Positions 16,161 through 17,331 of a DNA stretch of 31,720 nucleotides are shown one piece after another. Position 1 is the stretch's first letter; each line of letters begins with the position of its first letter. Both the position numbers and the translations under genes were made by a program. The DNA is taken from positions 1-31,720 of the forward strand of contig JAFMQQ010000001.1 of assembly GCA_017354595.1 (NCBI GenBank), given 5' to 3'. The stretch is from Micromonosporaceae bacterium. GTDB lineage: Bacteria; Actinomycetota; Actinomycetes; Mycobacteriales; Micromonosporaceae. Under the pieces are notes generated by a model, which was not told the origin of the DNA, ran no database searches, and saw only the letters and a program-made list of their open reading frames with translations.

Positions 16161-16625
16161 TTAGGACATGACGGTGGCGATGACGTTGGCGGCGAAAGCG
16201 GCCAGCGCGAACGAGGTACGCAGCGCATTCCAGTTGCGCCACCGCCGGCGCGGGTCGCGGGCCGGCCAGTCGACCGGCTCCCGCTGCGGATCCAGGCCGT
16301 AGACGTACCGGTTCACCGGCACGTTGCGGGTCACCGAGATGCCCATCACCGTCGCCTGCGCGGCCGCGGCAGCGGCGAAGACGAACCGGACCGGCGCCGG
16401 TACCAGGACCGCCAACAGCACGTCCAGCACGAGGGTCGTCCCGTTGGCGAACGGCATCACCGGGTCGTACCGGTGCCACAGGAACTGCACCGTCTGCACG
16501 TACTGCCGGTACGGCAGGGCCAGGAACATCGGCGCGATGCCCAGCACCGTGGAGAGCATGATCCCGGCCGCCACTCCGTTGACCAGGCTCGCCAACACCG
16601 CGACCGGGTGGGTCAGGCTACTCAT
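16161..16625 (-). CDS. Anthrone oxygenase-like membrane protein (DUF1772)
   Basis: GLAAG-like hydrophobic N-terminal helix, NVPVNR, W....RWRNWN.LRT. Confidence 0.75.
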
Positions 16626-17331
16626 CGCCGGCCGCCTCCACCAGCGTCTTGATCCGCTGCTGCTGCGCCCTGCTGTTGTTGTTGATCCGGTCCGCCATCG
16701 TGGCGTCGTCGACCGGTGCGGTCGGCTTCATCGCGAAGTCCTGGACCCACCGCATCTGCACCCCGCCGTCGACCGGCCGGTACTCCCATCGGATGTTCAT
16801 GTACGCGAACGGGCCGGTCTCCACGCGGTGCGCCCGGACCGTACGGGTGACCGGATCGGCATGCCGCTCGGATACCCAGCTCCACGCCGTGCCGGACTCG
16901 TCCGGGTGCATGGTCAGCCGGAAGCGCACCGTCTGGCCGCGGCGCTCCAGCACCTCCACGGCGGCGTACTCGTCGAACAGGTGCGGCCAGGACTCGACGT
17001 CGTTGGTCATCGACCAGACACGCTCCATCGGCGCCGCGATGACCACCGCGTTGTCGGTGTGGGCGCCTCCGCCCGCTCCGGTCGGCACGTCGCCACCCAG
17101 CAGCGCGCGCACCCGCTCCAGCACGACGCGTGGCGTGGCGTCCACCACCACCGCCTCGTCGGGCACCGCCACCTGGTACAACCGCTGGATGACGGCACTG
17201 GTCTCCAGCAGAGCCAGCGAGTCGTAGCCCAGATCGCCGAGCGTGGTGTCCAGGGCCGGCCCGGTCAGGTCGACCGGCTCGTCGCCGCTCGCCTCGCGCA
17301 AGGCGCCGGCCAGATCGTCCACTGTGAACAT
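16618..17331 (-). CDS. In-frame fusion of type II PKS ACP and TcmN/WhiE-ORFVI-type aromatase/cyclase
   Basis: Residues ~1-80 are an ACP with [10 protein letters not shown]; after the linker [11 protein letters not shown] comes [49 protein letters not shown]. Confidence 0.92.

Follow-up and report, generated by a model that had tools for sequence, protein, structure and literature searches.

According to the usual teaching, a type II PKS consists of discrete proteins that come together transiently. In the spore pigment cluster of Streptomyces coelicolor the ACP (WhiE ORFV) and the aromatase/cyclase (ARO/CYC, WhiE ORFVI; 3TVR, 3TL1, 2KF2) are separate proteins encoded by separate genes, which follow the order KS, CLF, ACP, ARO/CYC and are accompanied by cupin and TcmI-like partners. 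A natural fusion within such a "dissociated" system is represented by TcmN of the tetracenomycin pathway (2RER), in which a helix-grip first-ring cyclase carries a C-terminal O-methyltransferase, i.e., an enzyme of late tailoring. The pentangular gene sets for pradimicin (pdm), frankiamicin (fkm) and benastatin comprise KS-alpha/KS-beta, TcmN-, TcmI- and TcmJ-like cyclases, a KR and ABM enzymes; in the sections of PMC4383371 devoted to them, the ACP of these clusters appears as a discrete protein (FkmC). A 2025 review, in its parts on type II systems, portrays the proteins of these PKSs as mono- or di-domain and counts the compatibility of ACP and ARO/CYC among the unsolved engineering obstacles; weak complexes, it notes, are refractory to structural study (PMC12664062). 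An earlier note on the DNA analyzed here had stated that ACP and first-ring cyclase are normally separate, which is indeed the case in the characterized WhiE, TcmN and pentangular clusters, and had pointed to one reading frame in which the two are joined.

The gene cluster and the fused protein

The window, i.e., the whole stretch of 31,720 nucleotides that was analyzed, harbors a type II PKS operon on its minus strand, where all window features given with coordinates below are located. The upstream part of the operon encodes a luciferase-like monooxygenase, a TcmI-like polyketide cyclase (20356..20709; Pfam Cyclase_polyket, E 6e-38), a TcmJ-like cupin (19847..20437; Pfam Cupin_2, E 1e-17), KS-alpha with the active-site motif TGCTSG (18576..19850; Pfam and translation) and the chain-length factor (CLF, KS-beta; 17344..18579; Pfam ketoacyl-synt N and C, translation), which has Gln where the active-site Cys would be (SEQAGG) and whose ATG overlaps the stop codon of KS-alpha. 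The ACP::ARO/CYC gene comes next, so that the order KS, CLF, ACP, ARO/CYC and the cupin and TcmI-like partners are shared with whiE. Downstream follow genes encoding an Anthrone-oxygenase-family (DUF1772) membrane protein (16161..16625; Pfam Anthrone_oxy), an SDR ketoreductase (listed as 15416..16228, the real start being probably near 16150; Pfam adh_short_C2, E 3e-62), two ABM-family monooxygenases (15115-15414 and 14783-15301; Pfam ABM), a PEP-dikinase-like enzyme and two glycosyltransferases. The remainder of the window contains two further glycosyltransferases, deoxy- and amino-sugar genes, a T-C didomain and a SARP regulator. Judged by this gene content, the locus is a pentangular or spore-pigment-type type II PKS core within a cluster for a glycosylated product: KS-alpha with its Cys, CLF with its Gln, TcmN-, TcmI- and TcmJ-like cyclases, KR and ABM enzymes are united in one operon.

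Some features of the cluster are recorded here in their own right. The CLF ORF was listed with 454 aa (17344-18708), which is over-extended; translation probably begins with the ATG at 18577-18579, within the ATGA overlap with the KS-alpha stop, and yields 411 aa. The PEP-utilising/dikinase-like protein inside the PKS operon (816 aa, 12333-14783) has its best NCBIfam matches, all of them far under the cut-offs, with the prodigiosin ligases RedH/PigC and rifamycin phosphotransferase; a role in resistance, as a kinase, or in an ATP-dependent condensation is conceivable. The T-C (carrier plus condensation) didomain (25202-26761) stands alone, an adenylation domain being absent from the window. 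Two genes for Anthrone_oxy/DUF1772 membrane proteins occur in the cluster, one at 24753-25205 and the other at 16161-16625; the latter is translationally coupled to the fused gene and keeps its position in Actinoplanes, in Streptomyces NPDC004232 and in G002, a genome of the window's genus.

The fused ORF (16618-17331) encodes 237 aa in one frame without internal stop, as the earlier note had claimed, and both Pfam domains fall into this frame: PP-binding (PF00550) covers residues 10-69 with 25.2 bits (cut-off 20.8) and Polyketide_cyc (PF03364) residues 98-221 with 56 bits (cut-off 23.4); Polyketide_cyc2 (PF10604) matches the cyclase half with 42 bits. The ACP domain (residues 1-77, 17101..17331) was delimited by Pfam, PDB relatives and AF2. 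It does not end as a free-standing ACP of ~80-95 aa; the frame runs on through a flexible Gly/Pro/Ala linker of 12 aa (residues 78-89, 17065..17100; low AF2 confidence) into a cyclase domain of 148 residues, a WhiE/TcmN-type monodomain ARO/CYC with SRPBCC helix-grip fold (residues 90-237, 16621..17064; Pfam and PDB relatives), and terminates with the stop codon at 16618-16620. GC3 amounts to 0.92 over the entire frame, which is typical for real genes of this contig with 71% GC. The ATG (17331) lies 12 nt past the CLF stop and is preceded at a distance of 7 nt by a GGAGG ribosome-binding site (17339..17343), whose anti-SD pairing of -11.5 kcal/mol is among the strongest of the window. At the other end, the stop codon of the fused gene is overlapped by 8 nt by the start of the adjacent Anthrone_oxy gene.

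Both halves are related to proteins of known structure. Residues 2-75 match solved type II PKS ACPs with E-values of 1e-12 to 1e-14 (phmmer), the best relatives being those of frenolicin (1OR5, E 2.5e-14), oxytetracycline (1NQ4) and actinorhodin (2K0X). The intact LGYDS element mentioned in the earlier note is present as G35-Y-D-S38-L, with the codon of Ser38, the site of phosphopantetheine attachment, at 17218-17220. Residues 90-236 align without gaps to residues 3-149 of WhiE ARO/CYC (3TVR, 3TL1) at ~70% identity; the E-values are ~1e-62 to 1e-64 for WhiE and ~1e-52 for TcmN (2RER). The cyclase half opens with A90-H-T-D-N, its boundary codons being GGC GCC CAC with neither a Met nor a Val codon before, and stand-alone cyclase homologs start exactly two residues ahead of the matching His. 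A complete TcmN-type aromatase lacking its own Met, as previously claimed, is thus borne out by the boundary codons and by the WhiE and TcmN alignments.

In an alignment of 74 fused homologs, S38 and L39 of the ACP half are invariant, and so are W115, Y122, W152, S154 and R156 of the cyclase half. According to the alignment offsets, the latter correspond to W28, Y35, W65, S67 and R69 of TcmN, which we take to be its pocket and catalytic residues, so that both cyclases have the same catalytic set. R69 is named as critical in the part of PMC12664062 that treats TcmN. Since S38 and the five cyclase residues are invariant throughout, purifying selection apparently maintains both halves in their known functions, and from their sequences both appear functional. 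The cyclase half presumably performs the C9-C14 first-ring cyclization of an ACP-bound unreduced chain.

Structure prediction with the alignment of fused homologs (AF2) yielded a mean pLDDT of 91.9 and a pTM of 0.68. The ACP half is predicted as four helices (4-15, 24-28, 38-52 and 67-77; pLDDT 81-93) and the cyclase half with the helix-grip strand/helix pattern (pLDDT 94-98), and pLDDT falls below 50 for linker residues 81-86. In the model (pTM 0.68) there is no confidently fixed mutual orientation of the two folded domains. A complex prediction for the separated ACP and cyclase halves gave a score of 0.00, which counts neither for nor against docking.

A six-frame scan for PP-binding domains detected only two proteins with carrier domains on the 31.7-kb contig, namely the fused ORF and the T-C didomain. 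As the carrier of the latter is of NRPS type, the fused ACP is the only candidate for the minimal-PKS carrier on the contig, in agreement with the earlier statement that it is the sole ACP beside KS and CLF. Likewise, a discrete ACP-type carrier was absent from the flanking 8-9 kb on both sides of the fused gene in four further clusters, i.e., those of Actinoplanes sp. N902-109, Verrucosispora sp. WMMC514, an ENA MAG and Streptomyces sp. NPDC004232. The N-terminal domain might nevertheless be a decayed ACP that carries no chain, the PKS being served by a carrier encoded elsewhere: its Pfam score is modest with 25.2 bits, other small PP-binding ORFs occur on other contigs, and 30% of the genome is missing. 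We consider this very improbable in view of the invariant Ser38 with its DSL context, the phmmer matches to solved ACPs, the confident four-helix bundle and the lack of a discrete ACP in all five fused clusters, taking the window's whole contig and 8-9 kb around the others.

The junction and its codons

The genome from which the window derives is a fragmented MAG from a termitarium metagenome, with 1076 contigs and a completeness of 70%, and the window corresponds to one entire contig. A single frame in such an assembly could be an artefact of assembly or sequencing that hides two separate genes, the more so as the junction is covered solely by contigs of the sample that probably gave rise to the MAG. 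The Logan assembly of the same run (X1) contains a 15.9-kb contig with ~45x word depth, which is identical to positions 16400-17600 without gaps or indels; this is a re-assembly of the same data by a second assembler and covers the junction by contigs, not by raw reads. From the runs of sister samples (X2, X3) only fragments were obtained, none of which spans 17065-17100. The composition of the junction itself is more telling. Stop codons are missing near it in all frames, and the cyclase half lacks a start codon, so that two genes could not be regained by any single indel. Moreover, finished isolate genomes also code for a protein with this pair of domains. Taken together, we regard an artefact as extremely improbable.

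The earlier note had also described an in-frame GTG in the linker preceded by GGTGG, and had proposed that a free aromatase might start there. The codon was found at 17086-17088, where it encodes Val82, with a 4-nt spacer between it and GGTGG. Production of a free ARO/CYC of 156 residues alongside the full-length fusion would be consistent with this arrangement and with the N-terminal extensions of 8-21 residues that some stand-alone cyclases possess. The SD-like pairing at this site, however, amounts to -5.8 kcal/mol compared to -11.5 kcal/mol at the true start, and 16% of the in-frame internal ATG and GTG codons in the genes of the window equal or surpass it. Val82 is not conserved among the 74 fused homologs, and the boundary codon in the fused genes of G027, G008, G005 and Actinoplanes is GTC or GCC and thus no start. 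The proposal of a free aromatase gains little from these comparisons, and we consider a dual product improbable. A Val located ahead of G-H-T in several fused homologs was also inspected as a working start and discarded, the codon being GTC and not GTG in the two DNAs checked.

Fused and split relatives

Among the best 120 homolog clusters at 90% identity, 94 were fused (215-292 aa), i.e., at least 93 besides that of the window, with names from Micromonospora, Verrucosispora, Plantactinospora, Actinoplanes, Nonomuraea and Streptomyces. At 50% identity ~13 representatives span both domains. Across the class, 400 evenly sampled genomes yielded ~43 loci with this cyclase, of which four were fused without stop; all four, the window's own included, belong to the Micromonosporaceae. 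Sampling of this family revealed both domains in one stop-free frame in 38 of 250 genomes, and 39 of 103 matches were fused when the window's own locus was included. The family was recognized as Micromonosporaceae from the linker of G008, which is nearly identical to that of a Micromonospora rifamycinica protein. Beyond it, the fusion was detected in G027, which belongs to a different family within that order. With many fused clusters and 38 of 250 family genomes, the fusion is a recurrent natural variant and not unique to the window. The idea of a rare one-off has consequently been abandoned. The earlier note had named a common and already described architecture as the finding that would speak against it; common the architecture is by the counts above, and a description was not found in the texts specified below.

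The core order of Actinoplanes sp. N902-109 is that of the window, namely TcmI, cupin, KS, CLF, ACP::ARO, Anthrone_oxy, KR, ABM, ABM. The same core order is found in the cluster of Streptomyces sp. NPDC004232, which also has sugar and tailoring genes in common with the window. In Verrucosispora sp. WMMC514 the gene order differs: the fused gene (L013, 9001-9777) immediately follows three genes for an acetyl-CoA carboxylase and precedes cupin-KS-CLF. Its position relative to cupin-KS-CLF indicates that the fused gene moved as a unit. The ACP halves are still fused to the cyclase at identities as low as 22-30%, and the linker is unconserved among the fused homologs, with lengths from ~2 to ~45 residues.

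Three homologs with additional domains are mentioned separately. The metagenomic protein P0137 (373 aa) is a three-domain protein of ACP, ARO/CYC and a TcmJ-like cupin according to Pfam, and the metagenomic P0222 (399 aa) continues after ACP and ARO/CYC for ~160 residues and shows two Polyketide_cyc2 stretches; if they are not artefacts of gene calling, both extend the fusion series past two domains. A Pfam-confirmed ARO-OMT relative of 505 aa was also present among the homologs.

Many relatives have ACP and cyclase as split genes, and the fusion is accordingly not required. Two other clusters within the window's genus are split with a spacer of 1-2 nt and a change of frame, one junction reading TGA-cg-ATG. 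One locus of this genus (L012, G002:C255, 1229-6106) contains cupin, KS, CLF, ACP, ARO, Anthrone_oxy and KR in the order of the window, with the ACP stop and the ARO ATG 1 nt apart. In G587 and G661 the halves are separated by one in-frame TGA and the start is located one codon later (TGA GCC GTG and TGA CCC ATG, respectively). Given the in-frame TGA or the spacer of 1-2 nt in these relatives, one point mutation or small indel suffices to interconvert the split and the fused state. In a tree of the cyclase domain, fused and split sequences are interspersed; the best tree requires nine changes, of which the well-supported branches force only one, and one fused/split bipartition was not rejected by the AU test (p 0.32). 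These sequence comparisons suggest repeated fusion and fission. The likely origin would be the loss of the stop/start junction between tightly packed, translationally coupled ACP and ARO/CYC genes, after which selection would have maintained ACP::ARO/CYC as a unit.

The fusion could, on the other hand, be real but selectively near-neutral, a "Rosetta-stone" stop-loss accident between coupled genes of interacting products that brings no gain in channelling or fidelity. Such an accident would account well for the interspersed states on the tree with its nine changes, for states that are a single mutation apart, for the unconserved linkers of widely variable length and for the two split clusters in the same genus. 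It is less easily reconciled with the survival of the fusion through deep divergence of the ACP halves and through the rearrangement of the Verrucosispora cluster, with its occurrence in 38 of 250 family genomes and with the loss of the boundary start codon from the fused genes, although none of these observations proves an advantage. We give this explanation considerable weight, if somewhat below even chances.

Proposed function and comparison with known systems

In our view, and with good probability, the gene encodes a genuine two-domain protein, which combines the sole ACP of the PKS with its TcmN/WhiE-type first-ring cyclase; it is likely to have arisen through loss of a stop/start junction and to have been kept by selection, and it would work in the following cycle. 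Ser38 would be phosphopantetheinylated and malonylated. The ACP half would then dock on KS-alpha/CLF during elongation, with the cyclase trailing on its flexible 12-residue tether, and the finished poly-beta-ketone, still bound to the arm, would enter the helix-grip pocket of an ever-adjacent cyclase present in a 1:1 ratio. Completion of a pentangular-type aglycone would then fall to the TcmI-like, cupin, KR and ABM enzymes. We infer the order of these events, the delivery in cis and any gain in cyclization fidelity. Substrate channelling by the tether is plausible from the domain arrangement. The linkers of the homologs, being unconserved and ~2-45 residues long, argue against a precise tethering geometry, and this variability would fit simple proximity, delivery in trans or near-neutrality as well as channelling in cis.

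A natural ACP-ARO/CYC fusion was not described in the open-access full texts covered, i.e., in parts of type II PKS and ACP reviews and of the papers on PKMiner, frankiamicin, bacterial START-domain proteins, TLN-05220 and Abx(+)D; an account in a subscription journal is possible. The fused protein matched none of the NCBIfam families, and its homologs carry no more specific labels than "SRPBCC family protein", "aromatase" or "Carrier domain-containing protein". The architectural variant is large and visible in databases, and apparently undescribed. As the proteins are named automatically as "SRPBCC family protein" or "aromatase", cluster-mining tools may call such clusters ACP-less.

A natural covalent pair of ACP and cyclase represents an exception to the "dissociated" rule and offers a handle to trap and solve an ACP-cyclase complex. 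It permits a direct comparison of fused and split versions with regard to substrate uptake by the cyclase in cis, and could be transplanted, as a "carrier plus first-ring cyclase" part, into engineered systems for long-chain aromatic polyketides.

The known systems differ from the locus in distinct ways. In whiE, ACP and ARO/CYC are separate genes and proteins, whereas the window encodes one polypeptide with a 12-residue linker, in which the start codon of the cyclase has been lost. TcmN is likewise a natural fusion, but there the partner is a tailoring methyltransferase at the C-terminus; in the window it is a carrier protein at the N-terminus, so that the substrate carrier is covalently joined to the cyclase. 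The di-domain ARO/CYCs BexL (E 7e-10) and StfQ are also two-domain type II PKS proteins on the SRPBCC fold, but consist of duplicated cyclase domains instead of carrier and cyclase. The pentangular sets, as far as they are outlined in PMC4383371, correspond to the core of the window, which beyond this contains four glycosyltransferases, deoxy- and amino-sugar genes, the PEP-dikinase-like enzyme and the T-C didomain.

A further parallel exists outside the bacterial systems, and it concerns the logic of the arrangement. If real, the added cupin of P0137 would hint that dissociated synthases are consolidated step by step into multidomain enzymes. A PT-ACP arrangement is present in fungal non-reducing iterative type I PKSs, in which PT has a double-hot-dog fold within the megasynthase and is located N-terminal to the ACP. 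The arrangement is outlined in the corresponding part of PMC12664062. It is conceivable, though we would rather bet against it, that ACP::ARO/CYC forms an undescribed sub-architecture of type II PKSs which is concentrated in Micromonosporaceae and convergent on the fungal PT-ACP logic, and in which the tether measurably raises first-ring fidelity for unreduced chains of at least C24. In both systems the carrier is tethered to the domain that would perform the first regiospecific cyclization of a full-length unreduced poly-beta-ketone. In the window, however, this domain is of the SRPBCC fold, which is unrelated to that of PT, and it follows the ACP on the C-terminal side, with KS and CLF as separate proteins, so that the relationship is one of analogy and not of homology.
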